From Candidatus Poribacteria bacterium (lineage in GTDB: Bacteria > Poribacteria > WGA-4E > WGA-3G), in contig OZ244616.1 of assembly GCA_965218285.1 (NCBI GenBank), positions 1,472,133-1,536,132 of the forward strand: 64,000 nucleotides of DNA, read 5' to 3'. The position numbers and the translations under genes were made by a program. Of this stretch, positions 1,783-59,616 are shown piece after piece. Below the pieces are notes generated by a model. That model searched no databases. It had not been told where the DNA came from and worked only from the letters and a program-made list of their open reading frames with translations. How positions within the stretch are numbered: the first letter of the stretch is position 1; each line of letters starts with the position of its first letter.

Positions 1783-2180
1783 TGAACCAGGATGGACAGG
1801 ATTATGGGATTATCAGGATTAGTATGCTTTTAGATGGATAGCTATCTTCTGCTAGTACCTATACTCCGCACTTCTGATTTCCGATTTCGGTATTTATTTC
1901 TCAAACCTGCGTGGTCCCTACATTGAGTAAGCAATTTCAGGTGAACCAGAAAAAAGACAAGTGGAAAATAGAATCTTAATTCACAACTCCAAATCTCCCC
2001 TATCCTGTGCGAATCCTTTCGTGACACGGGTTTGTCGTAAAAATACCAAAATGTGTCAAAACAAGTGCGGAGTGTAGGCTAGTATTATCTTCAAATCTAT
2101 ATTTCTCGACAAAGTCCTTGTTCATTTGAGGAAGTATCTATAATCCTGAAAATCTGATAATCCTGAAAATCCTGGTTCAG
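1783..2180. repeat. About 400-bp structure bounded by about 40-bp imperfect inverted repeats, with a second nested inverted-repeat pair inside. MITE-like or a large regulatory palindrome.
   Basis: The outer pair is CTGAACCAGGAT..CAGGATTAT..GATTATCAGGATT at 1783-1823 versus its reverse complement at 2138-2180. The inner pair is GCTAGTACCTATACTCCGCACTT at 1848-1870 versus AAGTGCGGAGTGTAGGCTAGTAT at 2063-2087. Confidence 0.5.
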
Positions 2181-2231
2181 ATAATATACGCGTATACATG
2201 TTACATGTCAACTTTTTCTGATAAAAAGAGA

Positions 2232-2260
2232 AGACAGGTAACCGCAAAGTTACCTGTCTA
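2232..2260 (-). terminator. Rho-independent terminator for the 2294-3058 gene.
   Basis: Perfect 11-bp stem AGACAGGTAAC/GTTACCTGTCT, followed on the minus strand by a T-rich run. Confidence 0.5.
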
Positions 2261-2293
2261 TTGTTATTCATACTGATAAATGTGACATAATTT

Positions 2294-3058
2294 TTAATCT
2301 AACGACACAGTCGCAGTATAAGTCTCTTCATACTGTGACATATCTGACCATCGATAAATGACCGCTGTTATCAGAAAACCTCCAGTATGCATTGCACCAC
2401 TTGGGAACGTGTAACTGAATGTAGATTCAGTTGTCGTGCCGTCACCTGAGTCACTCCCTATATATGATCCGCGTTCACTTGTCTCCCAAGGTGCCTTCAC
2501 ATACCAATACACATAGTAATAAGGTGCATCTGTGACAAGTCTGTACTCATGTGCTTCGCCGGGATAAGGAGTGTCATCTGGATCTACGGGGGATATGCCC
2601 AATTGTGGTTCGGGGTTGGTGGGGTTGGTGGCGGGTGGAGGATCAGGAGGAGGCATCGGCTCTGCAGTGTCGTCAGCGTAGGCGGTATACCAGGTTCTCC
2701 CTGTGTCTTGCCCACTAGCATATGCATAAACATAGCCTGAGTTTTCTTCAAACTGAAAATCACGGTGATCCCAAAGCCAGATGTGACTATCAACAGGATA
2801 TTCATTTTTACTATTGGACCATACGTTAGTTATCGCAAGATATATAGACAAGTAACCATTTCTCGCTCGGTCAGTACTAGAAGCCCTTGCATACAAATTG
2901 ACATGTAATCTGTTTTCATTTCCGCCAAAGCGACGGGCATCTACAGAAGCTTCATAGGGACCTTCACGCTGAAAATCTGCTGCTGAAATTTCACTAACTA
3001 CACCACCGAAGAGGATGCCTGAACAGAAAATTAGTAAAAGAACACGATACAATTTCAT
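2294..3058 (-). CDS. Secreted hypothetical protein (signal peptide, Pro-rich central region).
   Basis: N-terminal hydrophobic signal MKLYRVLLLIFCSGILFG and a PPPDPPPATNPTNPEP linker. No recognisable catalytic motif. Confidence 0.5.
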   Translation of the reverse strand: MKLYRVLLLIFCSGILFGGVVSEISAADFQREGPYEASVDARRFGGNENRLHVNLYARASSTDRARNGYLSIYLAITNVWSNSKNEYPVDSHIWLWDHRDFQFEENSGYVYAYASGQDTGRTWYTAYADDTAEPMPPPDPPPATNPTNPEPQLGISPVDPDDTPYPGEAHEYRLVTDAPYYYVYWYVKAPWETSERGSYIGSDSGDGTTTESTFSYTFPSGAMHTGGFLITAVIYRWSDMSQYEETYTATVSLD

Positions 3059-3068
3059 TTTATTTTCC

Positions 3069-3827
3069 TTACCTCGTTAAATCGAGGAATTTGTAGGGGT
3101 CTATACCCCTGTCTGGGTACTCATAAATCTTTATACCTGATGTCTCAGTGTCATGCGTTACGTCTGTGCGCTCAAACATACGGTCAGTAAGGTATAAGGA
3201 TTGCCACTTTTTAGCAGTATTTCCGTCACCGCTTACTCTACCGGCATACCGTCGCCCTACTAAATCTGGGTCACCTTCTTCAATGTAACGCCATTCTACG
3301 TAAAGGACACCAGGAATGGATGGATAAATGAGACCATTATTAGGATCAAACATGGCACCTTTAGTTTGTGTGCCTTGTTTCCATAACTTAACACGGACTC
3401 GGACTAACAACTCATGCTCTGGCGTGGCATTATCCCAAAGTTGTTCCTGAAACGGATAATCAGCGGGAACTTCAGGATACGCACCAAATCCAAAGGGAGA
3501 GATAGGAGCATCCGCAGTTAATTTTGTGTTTATCTCAAACGTGTCGGTTTTTTCTGTTGTCTTCTCTGTGGGAACCGACGTATCCCTAACAGATTCAGAC
3601 CTATTTTCTACAGATTCAAGGGATTCTATCAGCGGCACGTCTGTCTGAACGGTTTTTTGTGCCTTTTGAGATAGATCCCCTTGAAGGACAATATCACCGG
3701 TAGCCGATAACTGTTGTTGGAATGACGCTATATCGTGTTGGTACCAGAAGTAACACAGCACAGCGAAAACAATAAGAAAACCGAAGCCACCGATAAACCA
3801 TTTATTTGTCCAAATGTCGCGAAGCAT
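3069..3827 (-). CDS. Membrane-anchored hypothetical protein, possibly the anti-sigma partner of the upstream ECF sigma factor.
   Basis: A single N-terminal TM segment (WFIGGFGFLIVFAVLCYFW). It is tightly linked to the sigma factor gene, with a 1-bp gap. Confidence 0.4.
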   Translation of the reverse strand: MLRDIWTNKWFIGGFGFLIVFAVLCYFWYQHDIASFQQQLSATGDIVLQGDLSQKAQKTVQTDVPLIESLESVENRSESVRDTSVPTEKTTEKTDTFEINTKLTADAPISPFGFGAYPEVPADYPFQEQLWDNATPEHELLVRVRVKLWKQGTQTKGAMFDPNNGLIYPSIPGVLYVEWRYIEEGDPDLVGRRYAGRVSGDGNTAKKWQSLYLTDRMFERTDVTHDTETSGIKIYEYPDRGIDPYKFLDLTR

Positions 3828-3828
3828 A

Positions 3829-4608
3829 TTATCCTCCGTTTCGTGGCGTTTGCTTTGTGGATTTCTTCCACTGCTTTATCACACGTTTCACGCATACTTC
3901 AACATTAGTCAGGGAAACACCTAATTTTTCACTAATATATTCGAGAGGTTGATTATCTAAATACCGTTCCATTATTTTCCGTTCTTGAGATGGAAGGTTA
4001 TTAAGCAGTTCGTCTAATCGGTGAGCAATCGGGCTCAACCACTTGAGTATCCGCTCCCATCTTTTCTGAACTGCTTCCGGTGTGGAGTCTATCACTTCAG
4101 CAATCTGCTTCGGCTTTAGTCCATCTAATAGGTATTCTACAACCTCAAGATCCTTTCCTGAGAGAAGTCGCAGGAGACGAGTTAACAGATATTGATCAGT
4201 CTCAATCTGCTGTGCCTGCTGTACCGCAAGTATTGATGCGGCTGCAGCTTCTCTTTCACCGTCCAAATTATCAAGAGAGACTAATTCTGGCATCCTGTCA
4301 ACATCTCGTCGTCTGGCTCTTAATCGGTCAATCGCCGCATTTTTCGCGGTCTTATATAACCAACTCACGAGCTTCTCAGGATACTTGATCGTTTCTCTCT
4401 TATTGAAGGCTTTGAGGAAGGTTTCATTCGTAATTTCATCTGCATCTTGATGATCTTTCAAGATCACGAAAACGTGACTACAAATCGACTCATGGTACTT
4501 CTCCATAAGCAAACGCAGTGCTTTTTCGCTGCCTGTTTCCAAAAACCGCCGATGCAGCGCACCATCCTCAACTTCCCCTTCGCTGTAAAAATTTTCAAAT
4601 GTTTTCAT
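3829..4608 (-). CDS. ECF-type sigma-70 family RNA polymerase sigma factor with an extra C-terminal region-4-like HTH.
   Basis: Region 2 is ETFLKAFNKRETIKYPEKLVSWLYKTAKNAAIDRLR. Region 4 is LLRLLSGKDLEVVEYLLDGLKPKQIAEVIDSTPEAVQKR. A second HTH-like segment is LPSQERKIMERYLDNQPLEYISEKLGVSLTNVE. Confidence 0.75.
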   Translation of the reverse strand: MKTFENFYSEGEVEDGALHRRFLETGSEKALRLLMEKYHESICSHVFVILKDHQDADEITNETFLKAFNKRETIKYPEKLVSWLYKTAKNAAIDRLRARRRDVDRMPELVSLDNLDGEREAAAASILAVQQAQQIETDQYLLTRLLRLLSGKDLEVVEYLLDGLKPKQIAEVIDSTPEAVQKRWERILKWLSPIAHRLDELLNNLPSQERKIMERYLDNQPLEYISEKLGVSLTNVEVCVKRVIKQWKKSTKQTPRNGG

Positions 4609-4690
4609 TGGTAGTTACGTAAATTTGGGGACAACTCCGACATATAATCGTATATTTTTTTGATAATATTGATTTATACCCATATACATG

Positions 4691-4892
4691 CAGGGCTATT
4701 TAGTTTTAAGAATTATCAGTTGATGAGTGTTACTGAAAGTTTATATTGTAGGTTGGGTAGAGCGATAGCGAAACCCAACATTTGCGTATACTTGTTGGGT
4801 TTCGCTATCGCTCTACCCAACCTACGATACTATTATAAGCATTAACGTGTGTGATAAAATGCGTCAGAAATATAGAAAACTAAATAACCCTG
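4691..4892. mobile_element. MITE family A, 202 bp, with 17-bp terminal inverted repeats CAGGGYTATTTAGTTTT and a 9-bp target-site duplication ATATACATG.
   Basis: Perfect TIRs CAGGGCTATTTAGTTTT / AAAACTAAATAACCCTG. The flanks ATATACATG are duplicated at 4682-4690 and 4893-4901. The interior carries an about 33-bp-stem palindrome (GTAGGTTGGGTAGAGCGATAGCGAAACCCAACA...). A second copy lies at 49082-49653. Confidence 0.8.
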
Positions 4893-5236
4893 ATATACAT
4901 GGCTAATTTAACCAATACACATATCCCTAACGATACTGAATATCCATAGTAGATTTGACAACAAATGGAAAATAGAGTAAAATACGGTCAGAGTTGAAAC
5001 TCCTTATATCTCCTTATATAGTAGGACTTATGCAAAAGCCCGACATTAATTGACCAAACAGCGGTATACGACACCTTTCATAATTTTAAAGACACAGTAT
5101 TATTAATGACACAGTATTAGGTAGGAAAGGGTGCATAGTATGAAAAATATTGAGTCTCATCTCTAAAAATGGATATTGCGTAAATCCTAATATAAAAGGA
5201 AAATTGAGTTTGTATGACGAATCTGAGGAAGCATTT

Positions 5237-6286
5237 ATGCGTAAAACAAGAAAAGTTGTGATGAGAAATGATGCGGGTCGCATCTTGACAGAGGAGCAGG
5301 AAACACCTGCACCGAAACCGGGGCAGTTGCTGATTGAAGTTCACGCTTCAATGGTTAGTCCCGGCACAGAACTTGGCGGTATCAAACGGAGACGCGAAAA
5401 TCCAGGTTCCGAAACACAGAAGCATTCGTTCGGATATACTAATGCCGGCGTCGTCATCGGTAAAGAGGGAGATTGCGACGAGTTTGAGATTGGCGATAGG
5501 GTTGCAGGTATGGGCGGTGGTTATGCTCTGCACGCTACGTATGCTTGTGTGCCGCATAACTTATGCGCTAAGATACCTGAAAACGTCAAGGCTGAAGAAG
5601 CCGCATGCATTCACCTCGCGGCGACAGCATTGCATGCCGTGCAACGTGGACGTATCCGTATCGGCGAAAACATTGTCATTGCAGGATTAGGTGTTCTCGG
5701 GCAATTTGCGAGCCAGGTTGCCAAAACTGCTGGTGCGTATGTGATCGGTTTAGATCAGCTGCCTTTGCGGATAGGGATTGCTGAAAACGCGGGTATTGAT
5801 TTGGCAATAAATGTCTCTGAAACAGACCCGATTCCGATTGCAAAGGAATTCACCAGAGGATATGGGATGGATTGTGGGATTATCGCCTTTGGTGGGGATG
5901 CAACGAGTGCCTTTCAACAGATTCGCGCGATGTTGAAAACAGCACCGGATACACACAAAATGGGACGAATTGTTATTGTTGGCGGGGCAAGTATTACGCA
6001 CGGTTTTGCGGCGGGACTTGGGAATGTGGATGTTATCAGCGCGGCACGCACCGGACCGGGATACCACGATGAGGATTATGAACACGGTGCTGATTATCCG
6101 CCAGTACTTGTGCCGTGGCCAACACAACGCAACTTAGAACTCGCGTTACGATTGATAGCGGAAGGTAAAATCAAGGTGCAACCGTTGATAACGGATATTG
6201 TGTCAATTGACCAAGCCGCAGACGCATGCGAAAAATTAATTCAAACTCCAAATGAAGCTTTAGGCGTTATCTTCACTATGCAGTAA
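5237..6286 (+). CDS. Zn-dependent medium-chain dehydrogenase/reductase (sorbitol/threonine dehydrogenase-like).
   Basis: GroES-like N-terminal domain followed by a Rossmann glycine loop (VIAGLGVLGQ). The start is placed at the ATG at 5237, which has GAGGAAG 9 nt upstream. The ORF track begins earlier, at 5150. Confidence 0.65.
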   Translation: MRKTRKVVMRNDAGRILTEEQETPAPKPGQLLIEVHASMVSPGTELGGIKRRRENPGSETQKHSFGYTNAGVVIGKEGDCDEFEIGDRVAGMGGGYALHATYACVPHNLCAKIPENVKAEEAACIHLAATALHAVQRGRIRIGENIVIAGLGVLGQFASQVAKTAGAYVIGLDQLPLRIGIAENAGIDLAINVSETDPIPIAKEFTRGYGMDCGIIAFGGDATSAFQQIRAMLKTAPDTHKMGRIVIVGGASITHGFAAGLGNVDVISAARTGPGYHDEDYEHGADYPPVLVPWPTQRNLELALRLIAEGKIKVQPLITDIVSIDQAADACEKLIQTPNEALGVIFTMQ

Positions 6287-8545: not shown

Positions 8546-8833
8546 ATTAGCGTCAATTTAAGGAAATAAACCTATATTTTGGATATCTTAGCCCCAGCGG
8601 GGCGGAATGTGTATAGACCACGATCCATACCAAACTCAAGCCCCAGCGGGGCGAAAGGTGTATATGGGCACATGTTGTCAGACACCTGTCACCCCGCTGG
8701 GGTTCAAGAGACTGTTGGATACCGTTTTCTATGTACCTGTCGCACCGCTGGTGCTAAGATGTGATTTACCAAAGCTCGGGTAGGCGAAAGATGTATCAGA
8801 CGCACTAACGTTACGCACTAAATTGACGCCTAT
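8546..8833. mobile_element. MITE family B, shortened copy. TIRs ATTAGCGTCAATTTA / TAAATTGACGCCTAT, interior made of REP-like GCCCCAGCGGGGC hairpin units, flanked by a duplicated 22-bp palindromic target.
   Basis: Direct repeats GGTGCGGTTTCCTAACCGCACC lie at 8524-8545 and 8834-8855. Full-length 357-bp copies lie at 49168-49524 and 59260-59616. Confidence 0.75.
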
Positions 8834-9100: not shown

Positions 9101-10348
9101 CTAAAGCGATTCAAGAAAAGCAATGACGGTTTGTTGTTCTGTCTCGGACAGGTTGAAAAATGCTTCTTTCGCGTTCTGAGCCTCACCACCATGCGCTCGA
9201 ATTGCGCCTTTAAGCGTAGTGGCGCGTCCATCATGAAGGTAAAACGGTGTGCCACCAAGGAATTTCGCTACTAAGCGAGTTCCCCAAAGCGGCGCAGTCC
9301 GCCATTCTCTACCTGTCGCTGCCCCATCAGGTCGGTTGTCCGCTAACTCCTCACCCATATCATGCAAAAGAAAATCAGAGTAGACGTGAGCATCCACTTT
9401 GTTCAATGCAGGAATAGAGGACGGACCGGTCTGCATTGTTGGGACGTGGCAAGTTGCACACTGAATTGTATCAAAAAGTTTCTCTCCCTGTCTAACTTCT
9501 TCTGTAATTATATCACGTGGGGGTGGTGGTGAAAGCAAACGCATAAATATAACAACATCCATAACGGTTGAACTATCAACTTCAGGGTCAGGAACCGTGT
9601 CTCCAATACTGGAGAGTTCATTTTCTAAAAACCCGTTGGTAATTCCCATGTCTTGTTGAAAAGCCGTTGCGGTCTGTTGTGCTAATGATGAAACAGATGC
9701 CTTTCGCCCGAATCTACCAAGTTGTTCTCCCGGTCCACCGCCAATTTCGGTAGTTGGAACAAAATCTGGAGCGATTACCCAGTGAGGTCTGCCTGAAATA
9801 CCGTCGCCATCAGCATCAAACTCGTCAGCGTAAGACAATATTGTTTCAACTGGTATATTTTCTATAAGTCCCACTCCAAAAACGGGTGGTGGAAGACGTG
9901 TTGATTTATCAACTCCCGTAGGAAGAACTTCGTAAGGAACATCGGATATGGCTTTATCTTGGAACTGAGGTCCGCCCATATCAAGCATAAGATTATGACC
10001 TCTGCTAAATCGGATGAGAGTTAAATCTGGTGTGCCTCTGCCATTTCCAGGGTGGCAACCTACACAACTGGTATTATTAAAAATTGGACCTAACCCTTCT
10101 TCCACTAAAAAATCCTTTTGAAATGCCTGCTCTCCTCGTATGAATGTAGCATTCAAATCATAAGAAAGCATACCAAAAGGTGTCATGTAATCATCGTTTT
10201 CTGTTTGAAGTTCAACATCGTCTTGAATTAATGGTTTCGAAAACTTAAAAACCATCTCATTACACCCACTCATGCTTATAAGTGTGATTAAGATAAGAAA
10301 TAGTGTGATTAAGATAAGAAATAGTGTGTACCAACTTTTCAATTCCAA
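9101..10348 (-). CDS. Di-haem c-type cytochrome, peroxidase or di-haem oxidoreductase family, secreted.
   Basis: Two CxxCH haem-binding motifs (CVGCHPG and CATCHVP) and an N-terminal signal/TM segment. Confidence 0.65.
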   Translation of the reverse strand: MELKSWYTLFLILITLFLILITLISMSGCNEMVFKFSKPLIQDDVELQTENDDYMTPFGMLSYDLNATFIRGEQAFQKDFLVEEGLGPIFNNTSCVGCHPGNGRGTPDLTLIRFSRGHNLMLDMGGPQFQDKAISDVPYEVLPTGVDKSTRLPPPVFGVGLIENIPVETILSYADEFDADGDGISGRPHWVIAPDFVPTTEIGGGPGEQLGRFGRKASVSSLAQQTATAFQQDMGITNGFLENELSSIGDTVPDPEVDSSTVMDVVIFMRLLSPPPPRDIITEEVRQGEKLFDTIQCATCHVPTMQTGPSSIPALNKVDAHVYSDFLLHDMGEELADNRPDGAATGREWRTAPLWGTRLVAKFLGGTPFYLHDGRATTLKGAIRAHGGEAQNAKEAFFNLSETEQQTVIAFLESL

Positions 10349-10835
10349 TCCTCCTATTATGTATTTGTTGATTTGTAGTGCTGCGGTTGATTTCGTGCAA
10401 AATGAACAATAATTTGTCTTTGCTAATCCGTAGAGACCTCTTTATCGGAAACTTTGAATCAAGTTAATTTGGTATAATAGCTTTGATATTTCTAAGTTCT
10501 AACTATACATATAAGCCATATCAAGACGAATAATTATGTTTAGCATATAATTATCATATACACGTCTTATTAGGGTTAATTATACTCAACTTCACCATAT
10601 ATGTCAATTAAATCTCACGAAAAATGTTAATCTACTGTAAATGTGTAAATGATTTATATCAAATTTCCGAATTTCAGGGTTTAGTCAACTTCCTGTCAAA
10701 TCAACGCTACATAGGTTTTGGCATTCGAAAAAATCGGGTTTACAAACCCTCCTACAAGAGACTGTAGTTGATGTTAGTAACTTTACACACCCAAAAGAAA
10801 AATTAATTTGATTAAAAAGAAAATATATTATATAA

Positions 10836-11282
10836 TTTATCGAGTTTCGGTGTCAAAACCCAATGCTTTAGCTTTGGGATGTAGACACCGCCCTCTTGTA
10901 TTAGACCAAAACTTTTTCTTGACATAAAACACGATTCTTGCTATAATCTCTTTTCGTAACTCCACGGGTTGTGAGCAGGCGTTCTGGGTGCTACATACCG
11001 AGTGAACTCACGTAAAGTTGCGACACAAGCGGTAGAAGTCTTTGACACCAGATAGTTGCTGATGGAAGCTTAGAGTGTAATGGGAAAGAGTGGTAGGACA
11101 CCATCCCGAAAACAGCACTCTCAAAAATGTTCATAAGACACCTTCGGGTGTGCAGGCGGGGCATCGTCTGTTGGAGTAGAGGGTGTTAGACTTGCTTAGC
11201 AAGCAACCCTTGTTGATACCACAATCTACACAGCAGGTGGGACAAAAGAACCCCACTGCTTTAGCTGTGGGAGTATGTCAGA
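10836..11282 (+). mobile_element. 447-bp ORF-less element with IS200/IS605-like subterminal hairpins and an internal consensus sigma70 promoter (copy A, intergenic).
   Basis: Identical to 47313-47759 across the shared 447 bp as read. Left hairpin CCCAATGCTTTAGCTTTGGG at 10859-10878 and right hairpin CCCACTGCTTTAGCTGTGGG at 11252-11271 share the loop TGCTTTAGC. No ORF longer than 60 aa. Confidence 0.7.
10919..10947 (+). promoter_or_regulatory. Consensus sigma70 promoter inside the 447-bp element: TTGACA, 17 bp, TATAAT.
   Basis: TTGACA at 10919-10924, a 17-nt spacer, and TATAAT at 10942-10947. The same promoter lies at 47396-47424 in copy B. It would drive an about 330-nt non-coding transcript toward the right end of the element. 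Confidence 0.6.
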
Positions 11283-11314
11283 ATTAACATTGTGGTACTA
11301 TGTTATACTAACTA

Positions 11315-11390
11315 TAGTTTGGACAATTTCTATCTGTTTCATGTTGTTTTCTCAAGTCCTTTCTATTTTTCTACGAGTTTTGTGTGAAGT
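11315..11390. repeat. Intergenic repeat family D (TTTGGACAATTT..TGTTTCATGTTG...TTTCTATTTTTCTACGAGTTTTGTG). Second copy at 17775-17870.
   Basis: About 75-90% identical stretches at 11315-11390 and 17775-17870. The motif AATTGTCCAAA recurs at least seven times in intergenic DNA (11700, 17775, 18061, 18275, 18541, 22068). Confidence 0.5.
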
Positions 11391-11414
11391 TGTAACCCAC
11401 AGAAAAACTATTAT

Positions 11415-11549
11415 AACGTGAGTTTGATAAAAACAAGATGTCGGGCTTCTCGTAGGGGCGAGGTCTTCTCCCCCGTAGGGGTTAGGTTACCTAACCCCTA
11501 CGAAAATGTCCATTTATGTTTAGAATTTGCTATATATCAAACTCACGTT
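11415..11549. mobile_element. MITE family E, about 135 bp, with 15-bp TIRs AACGTGAGTTTGATA / TATCAAACTCACGTT (copy 1).
   Basis: Perfect TIRs, flanking ATTAT duplicated, internal hairpin CGTAGGGGTTAGGTTACCTAACCCCTACG. Confidence 0.75.
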
Positions 11550-11569
11550 ATTATAGGTTCAGCAAAGGC

Positions 11570-11640
11570 AGCCCCAGCGGGGCGAAAGGTGTATAGAAAC
11601 GCGGGTGAACAACCCTCTTAGCCCCAGCGGGGCGAAAGGT
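11570..11640 (+). repeat. REP-like doublet: two direct copies of AGCCCCAGCGGGGCGAAAGGTGT separated by 21 bp.
   Basis: The same unit builds the interior of MITE-B. A second stand-alone doublet lies at 18420-18500 followed by the same about 90-bp downstream sequence (..TAAGGTGTTTCC.TTGACC..AAAAATTGTCCAAAG..). Confidence 0.7.
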
Positions 11641-11733
11641 GTCCCAATAAATCTTATATTGATGTCTAAGGTGTTTCCATTGACCTTGACTATCACTCAA
11701 GAACTCTAAAAATTGTCCAAAGTATAGTATACT

Positions 11734-11866
11734 AACGTGAGTTTGATAAAACAAGATGTCGGGCTTCTCGTAGGGGCGAGGTCTTCTCGCCCGTAGGGGT
11801 TAGGTAACCTAACCCCTATGAAAATGTCCGTTTATGTTTAGAATTTGCTATATATCAAACTCACGT
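11734..11866. mobile_element. MITE family E, copy 2, in direct orientation 185 bp from copy 1.
   Basis: Same TIRs, TATACT duplicated at the flanks, a few point differences from copy 1. A REP doublet lies between the two copies at 11570-11640. Confidence 0.75.
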
Positions 11867-11932
11867 TTATACTAAGTTAAAAATTGTATTTTGTTAGAAA
11901 CCGTGGTTTTCACACTTGTATTTGTTAAACTT

Positions 11933-13300
11933 ATGAATTCCTTGAAACATCTTATTCAACGTTGTCATGAACGGCACGAAAAACCACTTCGGCAGCGAAA
12001 GACAGTGGTAACACCTGCGCTGTACAATAAGGGTTCTCCTTATCTCTTTACAACTTATTGTGCACAGAGATACCCTGTGCTGCTCGTTGACTTGGAACAA
12101 GCCAACATCTCGTTTATGCCGATAGGACAGGCTCCTGATAATGATCGTGGACCTCGGACTTTGGGGGGTGAACGTTTCTTGAAACGTCAGAGGATACGAG
12201 ATTGGGGAATGAGACGGTGGCACGCATCGTGGGGGATTCAGATATATACCGGTATTCCTTCCGAGCTTGATGGTGCACGGTGGCACGACTTCAATTTTTC
12301 GTATAAAGCCTTATGTGACGCCCCTGATGCCGTTCTTACATGTTTAGAGGCTCTTATTGACGCTGTTCCGAATCCACTTTTGACGATGTCAAAATCTGGA
12401 GGGTTACGTTTTTCTTGCAGAGTGCCTGATTATCTCCATCCAAATAACAAAGAGGCGAAATATTACATCTACAAGCATGCCTCCACTGCTGAAAATCCAC
12501 ACAAACGAGATGTGTATCTTAGAGTCCGTGGTAAGGAAGGACATAATCGATGGGATGCGCGCAATGAGATTCTGCTTGGAAACTTATTAGAACCGCCCAT
12601 CATAGCCAAAGAAGTTGTCTTTGCACCTATTGATGCGCTTCGTGCTGTGCTTCATGAACCCGTTTCCGAAAAAATAAAACTGGTAAAATTTGTCCCTGCA
12701 GTACCAATCTCCCTCGGTTCATACAATCTCGATCTCGCAAAAGAAGCACTTATGAATCGAGGTTTTTCTTATCTTCGTCAAGAAAATGTCTCTCACCTAT
12801 GGAGACCACCCAACAGTGAAATTGACGACAGGCATATATTGCTATGGGAAAACGAAGGCACGGTGTGGTTACGCGCATCAGCACCTGATATAGGACTGCC
12901 CACGGTGTCCACACCAATTACGGATATATGGGACAACACCGGGATAATCGCCCTAAAACCTCTTGCTGGTATATCTATCTCTAATAAGATACTTACAGTC
13001 CAAAAAGGCAAACTTAGTCCGTTGGCAATAAAACGCCCCTCGCCTATGTTGCACAAGTCACAACAGAAAGATAAGGTTTATGAGACACTTGAAAAGAATG
13101 GTGTTGAAATCCAGAATATCTTTGAGCGAACGGACAGCATTATCGGACTGATTGCGGACACAAGGTCAAAGAAACACTATGAAGCAGTATCCTATGTCAG
13201 CAAAGGTAGTGCCACTTGCGTAAACATGCCAACCTATAGGCATGCAGAAAAGTTAGAAACCCGCTATCAAAACCGCAATATACCATTGTCCCAACGCTGA
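11933..13300 (+). CDS. Large hypothetical protein with weak archaeo-eukaryotic primase / PrimPol-like motifs.
   Basis: Candidate AEP motif I is VLLVDLEQ, candidate motif II is SKSGGLRFSCRVP, and candidate motif III region is RDVYLRVRGKEGH. The segment is Trp/Arg-rich. No P-loop. Start chosen at MNSLKH; the ORF track M at 11891 abuts the MITE. The assignment is tentative. Confidence 0.3.
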   Translation: MNSLKHLIQRCHERHEKPLRQRKTVVTPALYNKGSPYLFTTYCAQRYPVLLVDLEQANISFMPIGQAPDNDRGPRTLGGERFLKRQRIRDWGMRRWHASWGIQIYTGIPSELDGARWHDFNFSYKALCDAPDAVLTCLEALIDAVPNPLLTMSKSGGLRFSCRVPDYLHPNNKEAKYYIYKHASTAENPHKRDVYLRVRGKEGHNRWDARNEILLGNLLEPPIIAKEVVFAPIDALRAVLHEPVSEKIKLVKFVPAVPISLGSYNLDLAKEALMNRGFSYLRQENVSHLWRPPNSEIDDRHILLWENEGTVWLRASAPDIGLPTVSTPITDIWDNTGIIALKPLAGISISNKILTVQKGKLSPLAIKRPSPMLHKSQQKDKVYETLEKNGVEIQNIFERTDSIIGLIADTRSKKHYEAVSYVSKGSATCVNMPTYRHAEKLETRYQNRNIPLSQR

Positions 13301-13309
13301 AAACCGCGT

Positions 13310-15322
13310 ATGTACCTGTGGGAGCAGGTAAAGAATATACCTATTGACGTTCGTATGGTAACTCCGTTTCAATTGGGTAATGTCTGTGAAGATCCGGAAC
13401 GGTGTGATGCGCTTGAAGAAAAGGGCGGTGATGCGCGTAAAAGCATCTGTCCGCAGTGTCCTGTCTATACGCAATGTCAGCAACGTGGATTTTTATCACA
13501 ACCCTCCTCATTACAACTCGCCCAGACACAAATATTAGCACTCCCCCAACTCTTTTTTGACCCACAATACGCGGAAATGGCAGAAGAAATCCTCATGCAA
13601 ATGGATGAGACCGAAAGGCTTTGCATCATCGACAGAACACAAGCCTACAAACTGTTTCCCGAATGTACACTATCGAAAAAGACATTGAAGGAATGGAGTG
13701 CCAATTGGCACGGAGGTGCCTTGGGTAACTTTGCCAGAGCTTTATTGCATGCAGTAGAAATCAAGGACAAACCTCATGCAGGTGCTGTCAAGCGGATTCG
13801 TGCAGTGATACATGCCTTTGAATGGCAGCAAGAGAGACTCATTAAACAGATGTGCCAAGTTAATGTCATGGGTAGGGTTGTCACACGCGAGTTTATTGAT
13901 CCTGACACCGGAAAGCAATTAGCACGTTTTACCGTTGAGTTCAAAAGCGGAACATCTGCTTACGTTCCTCTAAACAATGACGCTGCAGAAAAACTCACAG
14001 CCAAAAGATTACCCATTTTTTCATTGCCATCACTTGCGCTTAACGAAGACCTGAAAATTTGCACGCCGATTTCCAAAGCCATCGAATTAGGTATCTTCGC
14101 TATAGAGGACGTTGAAGACATCCAGAAATTACCGACAACCTGTCCAAATCCAGACTGGACGTATTGGCATCAACTCAAAAATTTCTTCGCGCACTACACT
14201 CAAGATGCCGACGCTCCGATACGGTGGACTAACAAAACACTAAAATTCTGGGTGCCACCGGTTCTGCACCCCAACGTCAAACGGCTGTTGTTAATGTCTG
14301 AAAACCTCTCCGAACAACATCTCCGTAGAGCATTCCCAGAGAAGAAAATTGAGGTGCGCCGTACCGAACCGACTCCTTGGGTCGCTGGAAACCAGGTCTT
14401 TCAAATACGGACAGGTGTCTATCCGCGCAAAGCGATTTTAGATTACAACAGCAACTGGGACCTTGTCGGTATATCTAAACTGGGACAACGTTTTTTTCTC
14501 GGTATCCATAATGAGATTGAAAAAGATCCGAGCATTAAGCATGCGATTATCACCTATAAATCAGTTGCCACACGGTTAGCGGATCTCGCAAAAAAAGAAA
14601 ATGTTTGTCTCGTGACAAATTTCGATAAGATGGATGGATTGACTGACGCTTTTGAAGAAGCACATGTTGTCTGGATAGTCGGCACACCAACACTGAAACA
14701 AAGACTCATCTGGCAGCGAGCACAAGTTTTGTTTGGAAACGACAAAGAACCCCTCTCTTATGAAGAAGATACAGAATACGGACACTATAAAGACGAACGA
14801 GTACAAAGTGTTTATGAACACGGTATCATCCCCAAACTTTCTCGCGCTGTACAATGTGCTAAGTTGGACAAGTTACCGAACAAGAAGGTCGTATTAATCT
14901 CAAGTTTGGCACTTCCACAAATCACTGACAGACCTGAAACACTGCTTTTCGACTGGGAAGATTTTGAGGTTGCTGGTGGACTTGACAAACTCTCTGAAGT
15001 GATTGTGATACGCGAACGTTTTGAAACAGAACGTGACAATCTAACTGGCAAATCCAGTAGAGAAAAAGTGGAGTATATCTTGGGATGCTCCTCAAGACAA
15101 GCGAACCGAGTTTTACACAAACTCAGAGGGGGAAAACCGCTTCGTATACCTTTCCGCGAACAGATCCTATCTCTGCTTGCCGATGGCGAGAAGAGAACTG
15201 CAGAACTTATTGAAGCCATTGAGGGACATCCAAAAGCCGTAAAAAATGAACTCAGCCGCCTTGTAGAAGTTGGTGAAATTGCAAAGGTACAGTGGGGTGT
15301 TTATTCCCTTCCAAAAACGTAA
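13310..15322 (+). CDS. Large hypothetical protein (670 aa) with an N-terminal Cys4 zinc-ribbon-like cluster and a C-terminal winged-helix domain.
   Basis: Cys cluster C-x5-C...CPQCPVYTQC in the first 60 aa. C-terminal wHTH-like segment EKRTAELIEAIEGHPKAVKNELSRLVEVGEIAKVQWGVYSL. No NTPase motifs. Separated from the upstream gene by a 9-bp gap, so a likely operon. Confidence 0.35.
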   Translation: MYLWEQVKNIPIDVRMVTPFQLGNVCEDPERCDALEEKGGDARKSICPQCPVYTQCQQRGFLSQPSSLQLAQTQILALPQLFFDPQYAEMAEEILMQMDETERLCIIDRTQAYKLFPECTLSKKTLKEWSANWHGGALGNFARALLHAVEIKDKPHAGAVKRIRAVIHAFEWQQERLIKQMCQVNVMGRVVTREFIDPDTGKQLARFTVEFKSGTSAYVPLNNDAAEKLTAKRLPIFSLPSLALNEDLKICTPISKAIELGIFAIEDVEDIQKLPTTCPNPDWTYWHQLKNFFAHYTQDADAPIRWTNKTLKFWVPPVLHPNVKRLLLMSENLSEQHLRRAFPEKKIEVRRTEPTPWVAGNQVFQIRTGVYPRKAILDYNSNWDLVGISKLGQRFFLGIHNEIEKDPSIKHAIITYKSVATRLADLAKKENVCLVTNFDKMDGLTDAFEEAHVVWIVGTPTLKQRLIWQRAQVLFGNDKEPLSYEEDTEYGHYKDERVQSVYEHGIIPKLSRAVQCAKLDKLPNKKVVLISSLALPQITDRPETLLFDWEDFEVAGGLDKLSEVIVIRERFETERDNLTGKSSREKVEYILGCSSRQANRVLHKLRGGKPLRIPFREQILSLLADGEKRTAELIEAIEGHPKAVKNELSRLVEVGEIAKVQWGVYSLPKT

Positions 15323-15409
15323 AATATCGGATATCTCTGAAAGAATGGTTGTATCAATAAATTCGGTTCTATACCTTCCTAAATGTTTATACTGAATTAA
15401 TTCGTAGGT

Positions 15410-15505
15410 TATACCCAATTAACCCGATTTGTCTTATTTCCCGGCCAGTAGGTGCGGTTTCCTAACCGCACTTACCGATTGGAATCTCGTTAATTTGGTA
15501 TTATA
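15410..15505. mobile_element. MITE family C, about 96 bp, with TIRs TATACCCAATTAAC / GTTAATTTGGTATTATA and a central hairpin.
   Basis: TIRs at both ends. The central hairpin AGTAGGTGCGGTTTCCTAACCGCACTTACC is the same palindrome that is duplicated around the MITE-B copies at 8.5 and 59.3 kb. Other copies lie at 52753-52848 and, reverse-complemented, at 18595-18690. Confidence 0.65.
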
Positions 15506-18195: not shown

Positions 18196-18594
18196 TTCGT
18201 GTCCCAGACCAAAGCGTGGGACAGAGAAAAAACAGTTGAGATATTTTATAGGTTTTGTTATAATATCTACTAAAGTTTGGACAATTTGTGTGATATTCAG
18301 GCAGCCCTTTCAAGCCGTAAGGCGTGCTTTGGCTCGAAAATCTGTCTAATATTCTGCGATTTTGTTTCTTTAAGACAACTCACAGAAAAAGCGACTTCGG
18401 ATCCAGCAAACAGCAGCCCCAGCAGGGCGACAGGTGTATAGAAAACCAAGCCCCTCACGACATTCAAGCCCCAGCGGGGCGATAGGTGTATAGAAAATCT
18501 TATACGAATGCATAAGGTGTTTTCGTTGACCCAGCCTATTGAACGAGAATTCTTAAAAATTGTCCAAAGCTTAGTAATATCTATAGCATTGCTA

Positions 18595-31278: not shown

Positions 31279-32316
31279 ATGTTAACTTCAACAAAAAAGG
31301 TCAGTGACTACCAATATCTGATTGTTGGCGGAACAACAAAAGCTGCGACGACATCGTTGTTTGCCTATCTTGCCGACCATCCATCAATTTGTGCTGCATC
31401 CTACAAGGAAACGCGATTCTTTCTTGACACCGATTATCCACTGCCTTCAAAATTTCGTTTCAAAGGCGACGTTGAAGAATATAATTTGCTGTTTTCAGAA
31501 TGTGATGAAAACCAATTCAGACTTGAATCTACGCCAGACTATCTGTATTGTCCAGCTGCGCTTGAGAGAATGGCAAAGTTTCTGCCACACGCAAAGTTAA
31601 TTTTTAGCCTCCGTGAACCGATTTCGCGTTTGATTTCGTGGTACCGATTCGCAAAACAGATTGGAAGATTGCCACAAAACATGAGTTTTGACGGTTATGT
31701 CGAAGAACTCTTCAATGTTGTAGATGCAAAACCACCTGATAGTGGACAAGTTGCCTACTCGCAAAAAGAAAAGACACAACCCACCGAAGAAAATGCAGAC
31801 CAGGAGACAGAGGACACTAAGGATAATTTAGGGACTGAACAATATTTTCAAACGCTCCAACAAGGACGTTACGCTACCTACCTGAAACACTATCTTGAAC
31901 GTTTTGGAAAAGAGCGCATCTACACACTTTTTTATGAAGACCTTGCCGAAAACCCATTGAAAGTATTGAGTGATTTATGTCGTTTTGCTGATATAGAACC
32001 TGATTATTATGAGGATTACACATTTAAAGTTACAAACCGCACCGAGACTATGAGAAGTTCAGATTTTCATCAGAAATATAGAGCATTTAGATTTCAGGTG
32101 CGCCGATGGACACACAACAAACCAATAATTCATAAATCGTTACGTGTAATGCGGCGAGCAATTGAACCCCTCTATCTCCTTTTGAACACCCGCCCTGATG
32201 AAAACGTCTCTGTTTCTGAAAAGGCGCAAAGTCGTTTAATTGACTATTACAAACAAGATGTGGACGATCTAAGAGAATTGATTGGTAAACAACCACCATG
32301 GCAACCTTTTTTATAG
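31279..32316 (+). CDS. PAPS-dependent sulfotransferase (1 of 4 in the locus).
   Basis: 5'-PSB motif IVGGTTKAATTSL and a 3'-PB-like block SLREPISRLISWY. Start taken at the internal ATG; the ORF track starts at a GTG at 31240. Confidence 0.7.
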   Translation: MLTSTKKVSDYQYLIVGGTTKAATTSLFAYLADHPSICAASYKETRFFLDTDYPLPSKFRFKGDVEEYNLLFSECDENQFRLESTPDYLYCPAALERMAKFLPHAKLIFSLREPISRLISWYRFAKQIGRLPQNMSFDGYVEELFNVVDAKPPDSGQVAYSQKEKTQPTEENADQETEDTKDNLGTEQYFQTLQQGRYATYLKHYLERFGKERIYTLFYEDLAENPLKVLSDLCRFADIEPDYYEDYTFKVTNRTETMRSSDFHQKYRAFRFQVRRWTHNKPIIHKSLRVMRRAIEPLYLLLNTRPDENVSVSEKAQSRLIDYYKQDVDDLRELIGKQPPWQPFL

Positions 32317-46678: not shown

Positions 46679-47870
46679 CTATCTGGTGGAAATTTGCCCA
46701 CGCATATAAGAACCTTCATCGGAAGCCAGAAACGTCAGCACTCTCGCAACACCAGCGGGATCACCCAAGGATTTCACCGCATTGGCAACGGCTTCATCCG
46801 GGTCTTTTCCATCAAGTTTTGCAGACTGCGCAATTTGTCCGAGTTTAAGCGGTGTAGCGAGTCCACCAGGGCATATCGTGTGTATGCGGATGTTAAGTGA
46901 AGCGACTTGGTTTTCTACTGTCATCACAAGACCGTTAACACCGCCTTTGCTTGAAGCGTAAGCGATTGATGAACTTCCACCGCGAATCCCCGCCCCTGAA
47001 GCAATGCAGAGGATAACACCCCCGCCACTATTTCCCATTATAGGCACAGCATGTTTGAGCGCAAAAAAAGTGCCTTTAAGGTTAACATCAATTACTGAAT
47101 CAAAAGTTGCCGCATCAAAATCTTCTATACGGACACTTGCTCCCTGCAAGATACCCGCACAAGTCACTAAAGTATCAATTCGACCATACGTATCTTCAGC
47201 AGCATGCATTAGATTGGAGACGTCGACTTCAGAAGTGACATCGGTGTAACAGAATTTAGCATCACCGCCATTTTTCGTTATTATTTTTAACGTCTCTTGT
47301 CCATCAAGTCCGTTTATCGAGTTTCGGTGTCAAAACCCAATGCTTTAGCTTTGGGATGTAGACACCGCCCTCTTGTATTAGACCAAAACTTTTTCTTGAC
47401 ATAAAACACGATTCTTGCTATAATCTCTTTTCGTAACTCCACGGGTTGTGAGCAGGCGTTCTGGGTGCTACATACCGAGTGAACTCACGTAAAGTTGCGA
47501 CACAAGCGGTAGAAGTCTTTGACACCAGATAGTTGCTGATGGAAGCTTAGAGTGTAATGGGAAAGAGTGGTAGGACACCATCCCGAAAACAGCACTCTCA
47601 AAAATGTTCATAAGACACCTTCGGGTGTGCAGGCGGGGCATCGTCTGTTGGAGTAGAGGGTGTTAGACTTGCTTAGCAAGCAACCCTTGTTGATACCACA
47701 ATCTACACAGCAGGTGGGACAAAAGAACCCCACTGCTTTAGCTGTGGGAGTATGTCAGATCTCCCATAACAACTTTAGCCCCTGCTTCAGCGTATGCAAG
47801 GGCAGTCGCAGCACCGATACCTGTTGCCGCACCAATTACCGCAACCTTATCTGAGAGTTGGATATTCACT
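46679..47870 (-). pseudogene. Short-chain dehydrogenase/reductase gene interrupted by a 447-bp element inserted after codon about 40.
   Basis: The N-terminal Rossmann segment VNIQLSDKVAVIGAATGIGAATALAYAEAGAKVVMGD is encoded at 47870-47760. The rest (GLDGQETLK...YASSKGG...) is encoded at 47312-46679. The catalytic YxxxK is read as YASSK. Precise removal of 47313-47759 restores one continuous in-frame ORF. Confidence 0.75.
47313..47759 (+). mobile_element. 447-bp IS200/IS605-like ORF-less element, copy B, inserted in the SDR gene in antisense orientation.
   Basis: Identical to 10836-11282 across the shared 447 bp as read. Carries the consensus promoter at 47396-47424. No target duplication, which is consistent with IS200/IS605-type insertion. 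Confidence 0.7.
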
Positions 47871-59259: not shown

Positions 59260-59616
59260 ATAGGCGTCAATTTAGTGGTTTTCCGTGTCCGAGAAACCCT
59301 CTTTAGTCCCGTAGGGACGATATGTTTATAGCAACGAAAGCACCCACAACTCTTTAGCCCCAGCGGGGCGACAGGTGTATAGAAAAAGTGATACCCACAA
59401 CTCTTTAGCCCCAGCGAGGCGACAGGTATATAGAAAACGGTGTCCAACAGTCTCTTGAACCCCAGCGGGGTGACAGGTGTCTGACAACATGTGCCCATAT
59501 ACACCTTTCGCCCCGCTGGGGCTTGAGTTTGGTATGGATCGTGGTCTATACACATTCCGCCCCGCTGGGGCTAAGATATCCAAAATATAGGTTTATTTCC
59601 TTAAATTGACGCCTAT
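59260..59616 (-). mobile_element. MITE family B, full-length copy in inverse orientation relative to 49168-49524.
   Basis: Same 357 bp with a handful of point differences. Flanked by 20-22-bp direct repeats TGTGGTTTCCTAACCGCACC / GATGCGGTTTCCTAACCGCACC. The ORF-track ORFs 59139-59555 and 59326-59583 are artefacts. Confidence 0.8.

Follow-up and report, generated by a model that had tools for sequence, protein, structure and literature searches.

Within a 64,000-nucleotide stretch of a Candidatus Poribacteria chromosome (hereafter, the window), two co-directional ORFs 9 bp apart had been noted in a preliminary description, which read them as a two-gene unit bracketed by MITEs. The coordinates were confirmed. 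ORF1 lies at 11933-13300 and encodes 455 amino acids counted from its ATG, or 469 from an alternative TTG start at 11891, and ORF2 lies at 13310-15322 and encodes 670 amino acids. The supposed gap is instead part of a single frame: 13310 - 11933 = 1377 = 3 × 459, so ORF1 and ORF2 are in phase, and all that parts them is a single TGA, the sole stop within more than 1,120 codons. The region is evidently one gene of 1,126 codons, not two (Table 1). Most homologues are one fused protein of ~1,130 amino acids (range, ~1,080-1,150) with Trp at the TGA codon. Gene callers annotated two proteins in every assembly, and TGA is used normally as a stop elsewhere in the window, where it terminates 11 of 36 long ORFs. 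dN/dS was 0.07-0.22 in both halves of the gene at protein divergences of up to ~35%, showing that both halves are under purifying selection.

Table 1. Features of the locus, in window coordinates
Feature	Position	Strand	Basis or remark
Two MITE-E copies (11405-11559 and 11728-11870) with REP doublet between	11405-11870		Intergenic repeats
Reading frame, 1,126 sense codons and one internal TGA	11933-15322	+	Poribacteria-specific primase-helicase-like protein
Divergent AEP/PrimPol-like domain, residues ~40-245	12050-12667	+	Structure model
Degenerate XPD/DinG-like SF2 helicase region, spanning the UGA	13085-14989	+	
In-frame UGA, candidate recoding site	13298-13300	+	TGA at identical codon in 16 sequences
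12-nt spacer: codons K-P-R and supposed ORF2 start codon	13301-13312	+	pS/pN
18-nt RNA hairpin UACCUGU-GGGA-GCAGGUA, SECIS-like or readthrough-stimulating	13313-13330	+	dG, synonymous constraint
Five-Cys cluster C-x5-C-x14-C-x2-C-x5-C	13385-13477	+	Between helicase motifs I and II
Predicted C-terminal HTH and winged-helix DNA-binding module	15059-15319	+	
MITE-C-type repeat, core 15451-15471	15400-15505		Downstream of gene

The repeats said to bracket the gene are present. MITE-E, which is ~140 bp long and whose terminal inverted repeats are ACGTGAGTTTGATA, occurs in two copies upstream, with a doublet of a REP 23-mer between them (11570-11592 and 11620-11642), and a MITE-C-type repeat lies downstream. 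They are not specific to the gene, however: the REP 23-mer occurs 17 times and MITE-C five times in the window, the 27-nt end motif of the MITE-C-type repeat recurs at 10453-10479, and the two sides carry different elements. Nor are the flanks conserved in related genomes, where orthologous loci lack the upstream MITE-E. The MITEs are ordinary intergenic litter outside the gene unit. The preliminary description had regarded a conserved core-genome setting as evidence against its proposal, and such a setting is partly found, since the locus is syntenic across the TGA-carrying clade and many species, with a DHOR-like gene upstream. Its neighbours are this DHOR-like cytochrome gene, a methyltransferase gene and glycosyltransferase genes. 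The preliminary description had advised looking for an integrase or att site further upstream; within 6 kb there is neither an integrase gene nor an att-like repeat, nor any other gene of such an element.

Predicted domains and relatives of the protein

Structure models indicate, in order, a divergent AEP/PrimPol fold, an SF2 helicase fold of XPD/DinG type that contains five Cys, and a winged helix. The N-terminal fold bears out the proposal that ORF1 is PrimPol-like, and the Arg noted in place of the motif II His is invariant. The helicase region starts near residue 385 of ORF1 and takes in most of ORF2, and the UGA falls inside helicase domain 1, between a Walker-A remnant (ADTRSKKH, in ORF1) and the Cys cluster. 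In the window's protein, helicase motifs I, II, III, and VI have degenerated, and the ATPase motifs have been lost from this copy. The reported absence of an NTPase motif is thus true of this copy, but the protein is a degenerate SF2 helicase, and ORF2 cannot be described as a Zn ribbon plus winged helix alone. The C-terminal winged helix of ORF2 was confirmed. The Cys cluster at the start of ORF2, described as Cys4, contains five Cys, which are invariant or nearly so in 79 sequences. It gave a weak match to WhiB, in a part of the structure model of low confidence. It occupies the place of the XPD/DinG Fe-S domain and is presumably metal-binding.

As previously stated, neither ORF could be assigned to a nameable family: curated families gave no match to ORF1 or ORF2, and all identifiable homologues are from Candidatus Poribacteria. 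XPD and DinG helicases carry a 4Fe-4S domain between motifs I and II. The window's protein resembles the XPD/Rad3/DinG group, including CasDinG of type IV-A CRISPR, in having a Cys cluster at this place; it differs in its degenerate motifs and its fusion to an AEP-like domain and a winged helix, and it did not match Pfam DEAD_2 or Helicase_C_2. AEPs fused to remote SF2-like helicases have previously been noted in mobile genetic elements (MGEs) (Kazlauskas et al. 2018, PMC5862659). The order AEP, helicase, winged helix is also that of pRN1 ORF904 and other MGE replication proteins (PDB 1ro2 and 3m1m). No sequence-profile similarity to ORF904-type proteins was detectable, and unlike them the Poribacteria protein has an SF2 XPD/DinG-like rather than an SF3 helicase, an invariant Arg for the motif II His, no remaining ATPase motifs in the window's copy, and a chromosomal, syntenic, multi-paralogue gene. 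MGE ancestry is nevertheless common to both. Motif-intact relatives of the family sit in the replication modules of temperate phages and of an element bearing integrase, ParA and TrwB, which points to an origin in such modules. A group of distant relatives (P0294) carries PF08800 and PF08707, as in BT4734-like AEP and PriCT-2 primases of MGEs, ahead of the same helicase-winged helix body. The Poribacteria protein lacks a PriCT domain, and hhalign of its N-terminal domain against BT4734-like_N detected no homology (probability 0.2). This N-terminal domain looks like a domain replacement or a case of extreme divergence.

The in-frame UGA and the downstream hairpin

At least 16 sequences, drawn from independent assemblies, have TGA at this codon (among them OZ241980.1, OZ244563.1, OY763324.1, OZ243938.1, and the window's own chromosome), and TAA or TAG was never seen there. 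Within a monophyletic, syntenic clade of orthologues (16 sequences), the TGA has become fixed. Paralogues have Trp (TGG), Arg, Gln, or Tyr at this codon. The sole orthologue without TGA, L038, branches within the clade and encodes Cys (TGC) instead; a neighbor-joining tree places one change of TGG to TGA, followed by TGA to TGC in L038. The third base of the TGA changed once, not significantly less often than expected under neutrality (one change or none is seen at 11% of fourfold sites). The base 3' of the UGA is always A.

The three codons after the TGA (KPR) had a pS of 0.67 and a pN of 0.008 in the 16 sequences, indicating that they are translated. The fourth codon, the supposed start of ORF2, is ATG in just nine sequences (ATC in four, and ATA, TCA, and ACG in the others) and is therefore not a conserved start. 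An ATG at codon +19 is fully conserved, and the peptide leading up to it is conserved.

An RNA hairpin begins 12 nt downstream of the UGA; its dG lies between -7.5 and -8.3 kcal/mol in every sequence with the TGA. L038 has lost it (dG, -2.4) through a synonymous CTG-to-CTA change, and the mean dG at this site in 65 non-TGA paralogues is -2.3. Synonymous variation at codons 460-465 (13310-13327), which hold most of the hairpin, is 0.012, less than in any other of 1,110 six-codon windows; the mean for the gene is 0.40. The hairpin is thus constrained, although its energy is unexceptional (z = -1.6) and a similar stem is possible in 11 of the 65 non-TGA paralogues because these encode YLWEQV. It is invariant save for one variant, an amino-acid change (GAG to GGA) in L086 that keeps the hairpin, and so provides almost no covariation evidence. 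The loop GAG is retained in 15 of 16 sequences even though GAA would make the stem stronger, which suggests sequence-specific recognition, as by SelB. The region had no match in Rfam families, including SECIS.

Probable decoding of the UGA and origin of the gene

These observations make it probable that the UGA is decoded and translation continues in frame, by recoding of some kind. We give almost no credence to a nonsense mutation in a dying paralogue or an assembly artefact. Other family copies are visibly broken (an insertion in L058, TAA at codon 283 in L076, and late stops in L087, on a 4x-coverage contig) and the TGA clade has lost its helicase motifs, but the recurrence of one TGA across independent assemblies, with no other stop in frame, and the low dN/dS of both halves at considerable divergence refute this explanation. 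The original proposal, in which two MITE-delimited genes belong to a decayed integrative element or form an independent two-gene system, is very improbable. Its suggestion of a mobile replication module is right as to ancestry, given the motif-intact relatives, and the degenerate helicase motifs and the small mobile repeats of the surrounding intergenic DNA would also fit. The proposal nonetheless fails in large part on synteny and purifying selection: the dN/dS values argue against decay, no element gene was found among the neighbours within 6 kb, and the flanking repeats belong to different families found throughout the window and missing from orthologous loci. True fission is improbable as well. 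Here the TGA would end ORF1, and ORF2 would arise by termination-reinitiation at the ATG, ATC, or ATA codon or at the conserved Met 19 codons on, giving a split primase-helicase-like complex of two polypeptides. The two proteins called in every assembly, the ATG 9 nt past the stop in 9 of 16 sequences, the conserved ATG at +19, and selection on both halves, as expected of a two-subunit protein, all suit this reading. Against it, KPR evolves as translated sequence before the first possible restart, two lineages have TCA or ACG and five have ATC or ATA where the restart should lie, and the peptide up to Met +19 is still conserved. The stop splits helicase domain 1 and would leave each half with an incomplete fold; the lineage with a sense codon in place of TGA is still intact, which shows that the fused protein works; and the hairpin constraint and its loss in L038 are left unexplained.

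As to which amino acid enters at the UGA, we tentatively favor selenocysteine, by SelB/SECIS-type insertion, as the most likely mechanism. The minimal SECIS of E. coli is 17 nt long and begins 11 nt past the UGA, and the SelB proteins of E. coli and Moorella bind a GU dinucleotide in the loop, which the loop here lacks. The 12-nt spacer, the small apical loop with G at positions 1 and 2, and its distance of 18-19 nt from the UGA fit the bacterial SECIS consensus, which demands G at loop position 1 or 2 (PMC13582414). Bacterial selenoprotein genes such as E. coli fdhF and those of Sec-type [NiFeSe] hydrogenases (PMC13582414) share with this gene a conserved in-frame UGA, a short stem-loop that begins ~11-12 nt past it and has G at apical-loop positions 1 and 2, and a Cys-codon orthologue with a decayed hairpin. 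The last of these is the pattern described for Sec-to-Cys reversions (PMC13582414), and L038 was counted for selenocysteine on this account; against this, two of the three possible changes of the TGA third base give Cys. Sec machinery exists in the phylum, as in the hosts of known selenoprotein genes: Ca. Poribacteria WGA-3G has SelA, SelB, and SelD (PMC5649159, Table S4), and Sec-type hydrogenases have been reported in Poribacteria MAGs. A search of ~1.3 Mb of Poribacteria DNA yielded no gene for tRNA-Sec, SelD, or any further candidate selenoprotein. Unlike in known selenoprotein genes, the ancestor had Trp and paralogues have Trp, Arg, Gln, or Tyr, not Cys, the site has no recognizable redox motif, and the predicted product is a primase-helicase-like DNA-binding protein rather than an oxidoreductase.

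Programmed readthrough by ordinary near-cognate tRNA-Trp, with the hairpin raising its frequency and the same two isoforms made without selenium, is a possible but less likely alternative. Because the sister paralogue group has TGG at the codon, the UGA came about by a single G-to-A transition, and reading it as Trp would give back the ancestral protein. With W, R, Q, Y, and C all accepted at the site in one family member or another, it does not look catalytic. UGA-A, the context found here, is a leaky stop in E. coli, and translation past the UGA and the hairpin constraint apply equally. The A1 protein of phage Qbeta is likewise made by tRNA-Trp reading of UGA, with no hairpin needed to our knowledge. 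However, viral readthrough stimulators usually lie ~8 nt from the stop rather than 12, and we know of no bacterial chromosomal gene for which hairpin-stimulated readthrough is established. The retained GAG, suggestive of SelB-like recognition, the Cys rather than Trp in the sole revertant, and the Sec machinery of the phylum also speak for selenocysteine instead.

We conclude that the gene is a domesticated primase-helicase descendant with programmed UGA recoding. We trace its product to the replicative primase-helicase that phages and integrative elements carry; the family has multiplied across Poribacteria chromosomes, with loss of the helicase ATPase motifs in this orthologue group and change of a Trp codon from TGG to TGA at its base. 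Ribosomes would decode the UGA and go on in frame, aided by the hairpin. Stopping there would yield a 455-amino-acid, AEP-only product and recoding the 1,126-amino-acid protein, so that the site would set the ratio of two isoforms. Qbeta A1 and the tau/gamma products of dnaX, which arise by -1 frameshifting at a slippery site with an upstream SD, offer parallels, since we propose that here too a cis RNA element determines the ratio of a short N-terminal and a long product; unlike dnaX, a single frame with a UGA and no frameshift is involved. As a guess at its cellular role, the protein may bind DNA or act in priming independently of ATP, having evolved from a replication protein that bound origins.

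One reading frame interrupted by a single TGA

The two open reading frames named in the preliminary description, ORF1 and ORF2, were both recovered. Their first bases lie 1377 nt apart (13310-11933 = 1377 = 3x459), and they are therefore in one frame, parted by a single TGA in the context CGC TGA AAA CCG CGT ATG. No other pair of long frames within the window is split by a TGA. TGA also ends 11 of the 36 long ORFs in the window, as a normal stop, and genome-wide reassignment of TGA was rejected for this reason.

Every locus was translated in frame to check for stops. TGA occupied the identical codon in the window and in 12 other genomes, and it was the sole stop among >1,120 codons in these loci. 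Three additional members from metagenomes, of which one came from Tara Oceans, and two JGI contigs had it as well. Complete chromosomes with the TGA allele include OZ241980.1, OZ244563.1, OY763324.1, and OZ243938.1, besides the 6.07-Mb contig to which the window belongs. TAA or TAG was found at this codon in no locus translated. In a neighbor-joining (NJ) tree, the TGA sequences formed one clade (the TGA clade), the sister group of which has TGG, and one nested orthologue, L038 (OZ242381.1), has TGC (Cys). From this topology, TGG changed to TGA once, and TGA then changed to TGC once. TGA was retained while the clade proteins diverged to ~65% identity; as evidence of selection on the stop itself, this retention was not significant (p about 0.11). 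Within the clade, dN/dS was 0.07-0.22 in both halves, indicating purifying selection, which rules out a pseudogene. A scan for a second TGA-split long frame across the collected Poribacteria DNA gave no convincing other candidate selenoprotein.

The codons next to the TGA evolve as coding sequence. Among the 16 sequences, the K-P-R codons immediately downstream use 2, 4, and 5 different synonymous codons, respectively, with pS of 0.67, pN of 0.008, and essentially no amino-acid change. The codon that follows, which is the "ORF2 start" of the window, is ATG in 9 of 16 sequences, ATC in 4, and ATA, TCA, or ACG in the rest, and the peptide is conserved up to the next conserved Met (+19) even where any start codon is lacking. 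This pattern argues for zero-frame translation of the codons after the UGA, and hence for decoding of the UGA itself, and the proposed division into two genes was replaced by one frame with a single TGA. Frameshifting by +1 or -1 at the stop was rejected because the zero frame is the one conserved downstream.

Repeats and neighborhood of the gene

Coordinates of the gene and of other features in the window are listed in the table.

Features of the window (coordinates within the 64,000-nt stretch)
Feature	Coordinates	Strand	Remarks
ORF1	11933-13300	+	455 aa counted from ATG
TGA	13298-13300	+	in-frame stop between ORF1 and ORF2
ORF2	13310-15322	+	670 aa
Hairpin	13313-13330	+	starts 12 nt past the UGA
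MITE-E elements	11405-11559; 11728-11870		two, ~140 bp each, upstream of the gene
MITE-C core	15451-15471		
447-bp element	10836-11282; 47313-47759		two copies, 100% identity
Sigma-70 promoter in 447-bp element	10919-10947		TTGACA-17-TATAAT with TG; perfect; directed toward the gene
Further sigma-70 promoter matches	10856-10827; 10607-10579	-	perfect, 12/12
DHOR-like gene	9101-10348		
Clusters of REP-like 23-nt palindrome	8590-8704; 18415-18489; 49212-49428; 59356-59572		both orientations
TAG between same-frame long open frames	32314-32316	+	364+305 codons
TAA between same-frame long open frames	42547-42549	+	677+555 codons

The repeats said to bracket the gene are present as described: the two MITE-E elements have terminal inverted repeats ACGTGAGTTTGATA, a doublet of the 23-mer AGCCCCAGCGGGGCGAAAGGTGT sits between them, and a MITE-C core follows the gene. 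They are dispersed, with 17 copies of the 23-mer (vs 0 expected) and five of the MITE-C core in the window; they differ between the two flanks, and MITE-E is absent upstream of orthologues in other genomes. The flanking repeats are ordinary intergenic litter. Within the TGA clade, synteny is conserved, with the DHOR-like cytochrome gene or a conserved ~810-aa gene on the upstream side and a conserved gene block on the downstream side, so the gene was vertically inherited and is no recently inserted element. No integrase was found near the gene. The MITE-bounded integrative module suggested earlier was abandoned on these three grounds: unlike, dispersed repeats on the two flanks, no nearby integrase, and conserved synteny.

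Several other features of the window were recorded. The 447-bp element contains ~330 nt of structured-looking sequence and carries the hairpin motif AAaCCCAaTGCTTTAGCTtTGGGA at both ends; a related end motif occurs in locus L003 beside a TnpB/OrfB_IS605 gene. It had no Rfam match and is possibly a non-autonomous element of the IS200/IS605 type whose transcript resembles an omega-RNA. The two minus-strand promoter matches fall in the AT-rich gap upstream of the DHOR-like gene. The same-frame pairs separated by TAG and TAA, each with one stop between the long frames, are perhaps merely adjacent genes.

A hairpin downstream of the UGA and probable decoding of the stop

Synonymous sites in TAC CTG TGG GAG CAG GT(N), just downstream of the stop, were invariant in all TGA sequences, whereas the same codon positions vary freely in paralogues. 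In a sliding-window analysis, codons 460-465 had the lowest synonymous variation of 1,110 windows (0.012 vs a gene mean of 0.40). The segment folds as UACCUGU-GGGA-GCAGGUA, a 7-bp stem with a GGGA loop. For each of the TGA sequences the predicted dG lay between -7.5 and -8.3 kcal/mol, and the mean over 65 non-TGA paralogues was -2.3 kcal/mol. In L038, with Cys in place of the stop, a synonymous CTG->CTA change abolishes the hairpin (dG -2.4). In L086 the stem survives a GAG->GGA substitution that alters the amino acid; a U-A pair closes it, and the loop reads GGGG. The case for the hairpin is made by this synonymous constraint and by the loss of the structure once the stop was gone; its energy alone is unremarkable (z = -1.6), and no classical covariation was found in it. 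When metagenomes were scanned by pattern for members of the TGA clade with altered hairpins, only two sequences proved to be true members, and each had the standard hairpin. Rfam searches of the whole window at the gathering threshold, and of 10300-13600 at an E-value threshold, returned no SECIS and no other family. The minimal SECIS geometry of E. coli also fits the hairpin. A Shine-Dalgarno-like role for the loop sequence GGGAG was rejected, as no start codon is suitably spaced from it.

We tentatively favor selenocysteine (Sec) insertion at the UGA. The hairpin is SECIS-like: its 12-nt spacer and the G at apical-loop positions 1-2 match the bacterial consensus, which has G at apical-loop position 1 or 2 (PMC13582414). 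L038, the sole orthologue with a sense codon, has Cys there and its hairpin has decayed, as has been described for genes that reverted from Sec to Cys (PMC13582414). The machinery is known in the phylum, both from Candidatus Poribacteria WGA-3G (SelA 2, SelB 1, SelD 1; PMC5649159 Table S4) and from Sec-type hydrogenases reported in Poribacteria MAGs (PMC13582414). With an in-frame UGA and coding sequence conserved on both sides in all 16 sequences, the site appears to have the usual bioinformatic hallmarks of a selenoprotein gene, except that the wider family carries Trp, not Cys. Against Sec, the aligned residue is, apart from L038, W, R, Q, or Y in all 65 other homologues, and the ancestral and paralogous residues are not Cys; moreover, no redox motif surrounds the site, and the Rfam SECIS families were unmatched. 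Nor were sel genes found in the ~1.3 Mb of collected Poribacteria DNA: tRNA-Sec was absent from the 88 loci examined, and an approximate E. coli SelD query had no tblastn match. No tRNA genes were found in the window.

It is somewhat less probable that ordinary tRNA-Trp decodes the UGA, with the hairpin 12 nt downstream as a dedicated readthrough stimulator. A single transition made UGA out of TGG, near-cognate decoding would bring back the ancestral residue, and the base 3' of the UGA is always A. To our knowledge, however, hairpin-stimulated readthrough is not established in bacteria, and the strict conservation of the loop base in GAG suggests a sequence-specific reader. True fission with reinitiation is improbable: the UGA interrupts helicase domain 1, with the Walker-A remnant before it in ORF1 and the Cys cluster after it in ORF2, so neither half would be a complete fold alone. 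All remaining readings, even taken together, have a similarly small probability.

Domains, relatives, and significance of the protein

As the preliminary description had found, neither ORF could be placed with confidence in a named family: searches of Pfam, NCBIfam, PHROGs, and PADLOC with both gave only weak matches to a C-terminal winged helix (wHTH; HTH_5, AbiEi) and to WhiB-like families. The PrimPol-like character proposed for ORF1 held at the level of fold, which the structure model supports. The AF2 model (pLDDT 66, core ~75-80) has the AEP catalytic-core fold, and AEPs topped the Foldseek list against the PDB, none significantly. Sequence comparison gave no support. The motif II His is absent, no curated AEP family in Pfam, NCBIfam, or PHROGs was matched, profile searches against PDB sequences gave nothing significant, and hhalign of the N-terminal profile with the bona fide AEP (BT4734-like) N-terminus of protein cluster P0294 returned a probability of 0.2, no match.

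Invariant residues of the domain are E55, H118, D119, G156, G157, R159, R163, D208, R210, and E212. Motif I has two candidates among 79 sequences: V-D53-L-E55, in which E55 is invariant and position 53 is D, E, N, or A, and W-H118-D119-x-121, in which D119 is invariant and position 121 is D, E, N, H, or Y (N in the window). Spacing to motifs II and III favors the latter as the putative motif I over VLLVDLE, the earlier choice. In place of the motif II sxH there is SGGLR159F; the Arg already seen at the His position proved invariant, and H118 is an invariant His elsewhere in the same domain. Motif III candidates are D193 (RDVYL), which is D in 59 of 79 sequences, and the near-invariant D208 (WDAR).

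In the structure model, the following region has two RecA-like domains with XPD/DinG topology, as in an SF2 helicase. The helicase motifs are degenerate in the window: ADTRSKKH and IDRT stand in place of motifs I (GxGK[ST]) and II (DExH), and AVQCAKLD in place of motif VI (QxxGRxxR). The entire TGA clade lacks GK[ST] and has D-R in motif II, and motifs I, II, and VI are lost throughout it. Paralogues that retain motifs I and II have AETGAGKS and DEV/DEA, active-looking paralogues have IIGRxGLN as motif VI, and distant relatives keep the canonical SF2 motifs (GPGEGKT/APTGAGKD, DEVH, SAT, and QAIGRARL). Five Cys between motifs I and II are invariant in 79 sequences, in a segment with model pLDDT <50. 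XPD and DinG have an Fe-S domain at the equivalent position, between motifs I/Ia and II; sequence alone cannot separate Fe-S from Zn here.

Database homologues are all unnamed or "hypothetical," and those with an organism name are without exception Candidatus Poribacteria, which are sponge-associated and marine bacteria. Most homologues of ORF2 span ORF1 as well, in one protein of ~1,080-1,150 aa, with Trp aligned to the TGA (..RWKPRMHLWEQVK..). A scan of species-representative genomes gave 306 loci, all in Poribacteria MAGs or chromosomes, with several diverged paralogues per genome (58-78% identity), some in tandem, and an exhaustive profile search gave 606 clusters. Some Poribacteria paralogues retain AETGAGKS/DEV/IGRxGL. 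One distant group has BT4734-like_N and PriCT_2 at the N-terminus, and distant members with intact motifs were found in the replication regions of temperate phages, in the company of S24 repressor, RuvC, and terminase genes, and in an element that carries integrase, ParA, and TrwB. A universal partner gene was rejected, as neighbor clustering of 80 loci found no gene shared by all paralogue groups.

Further observations concern individual loci. Tandem same-strand paralogues occur in L013, L016, L032, L036, L051, L054, L055, L057, L058, L059, L067, and L078. The upstream of the two L059 copies (2114-5596) shares 60% identity with protein cluster P0140; one copy in L059 has AETGAGKS and DEV and the other is degenerate (GAGKN, IDD), perhaps an active/inactive pair. 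Widespread shorter members (P0099, 783 aa; P0036, 737 aa; and similar clusters) have large internal deletions that remove most of the helicase and leave the AEP-like N-terminus and a C-terminal part with the wHTH; several such clusters are large, with many sequences on multi-Mb contigs. The paralogue at L058 4000-9094 is broken by a ~1.7-kb insertion and one in L076 by TAA at codon 283, and late stops in L087, a 4x-coverage contig, are possibly assembly errors. In the Trp-type sister group and a few others (L004-L016, L021, L022, L032, L036, L050, L055, L067), a conserved SNF2-family helicase (~640 aa) and a VWA-domain protein (~328 aa) lie downstream on the opposite strand; 18-19 loci have this arrangement. 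The VWA gene of L003 adjoins a HaeII-type restriction-modification pair. These neighbors could reflect functional linkage or a defense-island context. The ENA metagenome contigs L084 and L085 are related temperate-phage-like genomes with a motif-intact AEP(BT4734-like)-PriCT2-helicase-wHTH gene beside S24 repressor, RuvC, DUF5131, methylase, and terminase genes. The L084 sample accession is in the ERZ250xxxxx range, as are several Poribacteria assemblies, and the two may be phages of the same community.

The protein resembles pRN1 ORF904-type replication proteins in module order and XPD/DinG in helicase fold, and it has a likeness to the AEP-SF2 fusions noted previously (Kazlauskas et al., PMC5862659); sequence comparison placed it in none of the three. 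We regard the gene as a new case of recoding and its product as a new branch among primase-helicase fusions. We propose that the protein is a domesticated descendant of a replicative primase-helicase of mobile genetic elements. It would have lost ATP hydrolysis while retaining its AEP-like domain, its metal cluster, and a wHTH that binds DNA, and it may be expressed as a 455-aa N-terminal form and, by hairpin-dependent UGA recoding, as the full-length protein.

The locus is annotated as two hypothetical genes in every assembly, and recognition of the conserved recoding site corrects this for a family of >1,000 database entries. If the UGA encodes Sec, the protein would be an unprecedented type of selenoprotein, a primase-helicase-like DNA-binding protein, with a Sec that originated in a Trp codon and lies in no redox motif, which would call into question the view that catalytic Cys is the source of Sec. 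In a replication-type protein, this would be nearly as unusual as Trp readthrough. If Trp is inserted, this bacterial chromosomal gene would undergo programmed readthrough stimulated by RNA structure, a rare case in bacteria, with AEP-only and full-length isoforms in a fixed ratio maintained across a whole clade of Poribacteria. Under either reading, L038 is a natural experiment in which a sense codon replaced the stop and the hairpin decayed afterwards. The family would represent a phage or ICE replicative primase-helicase that became domesticated within a single candidate phylum, where it multiplied and was in part inactivated.
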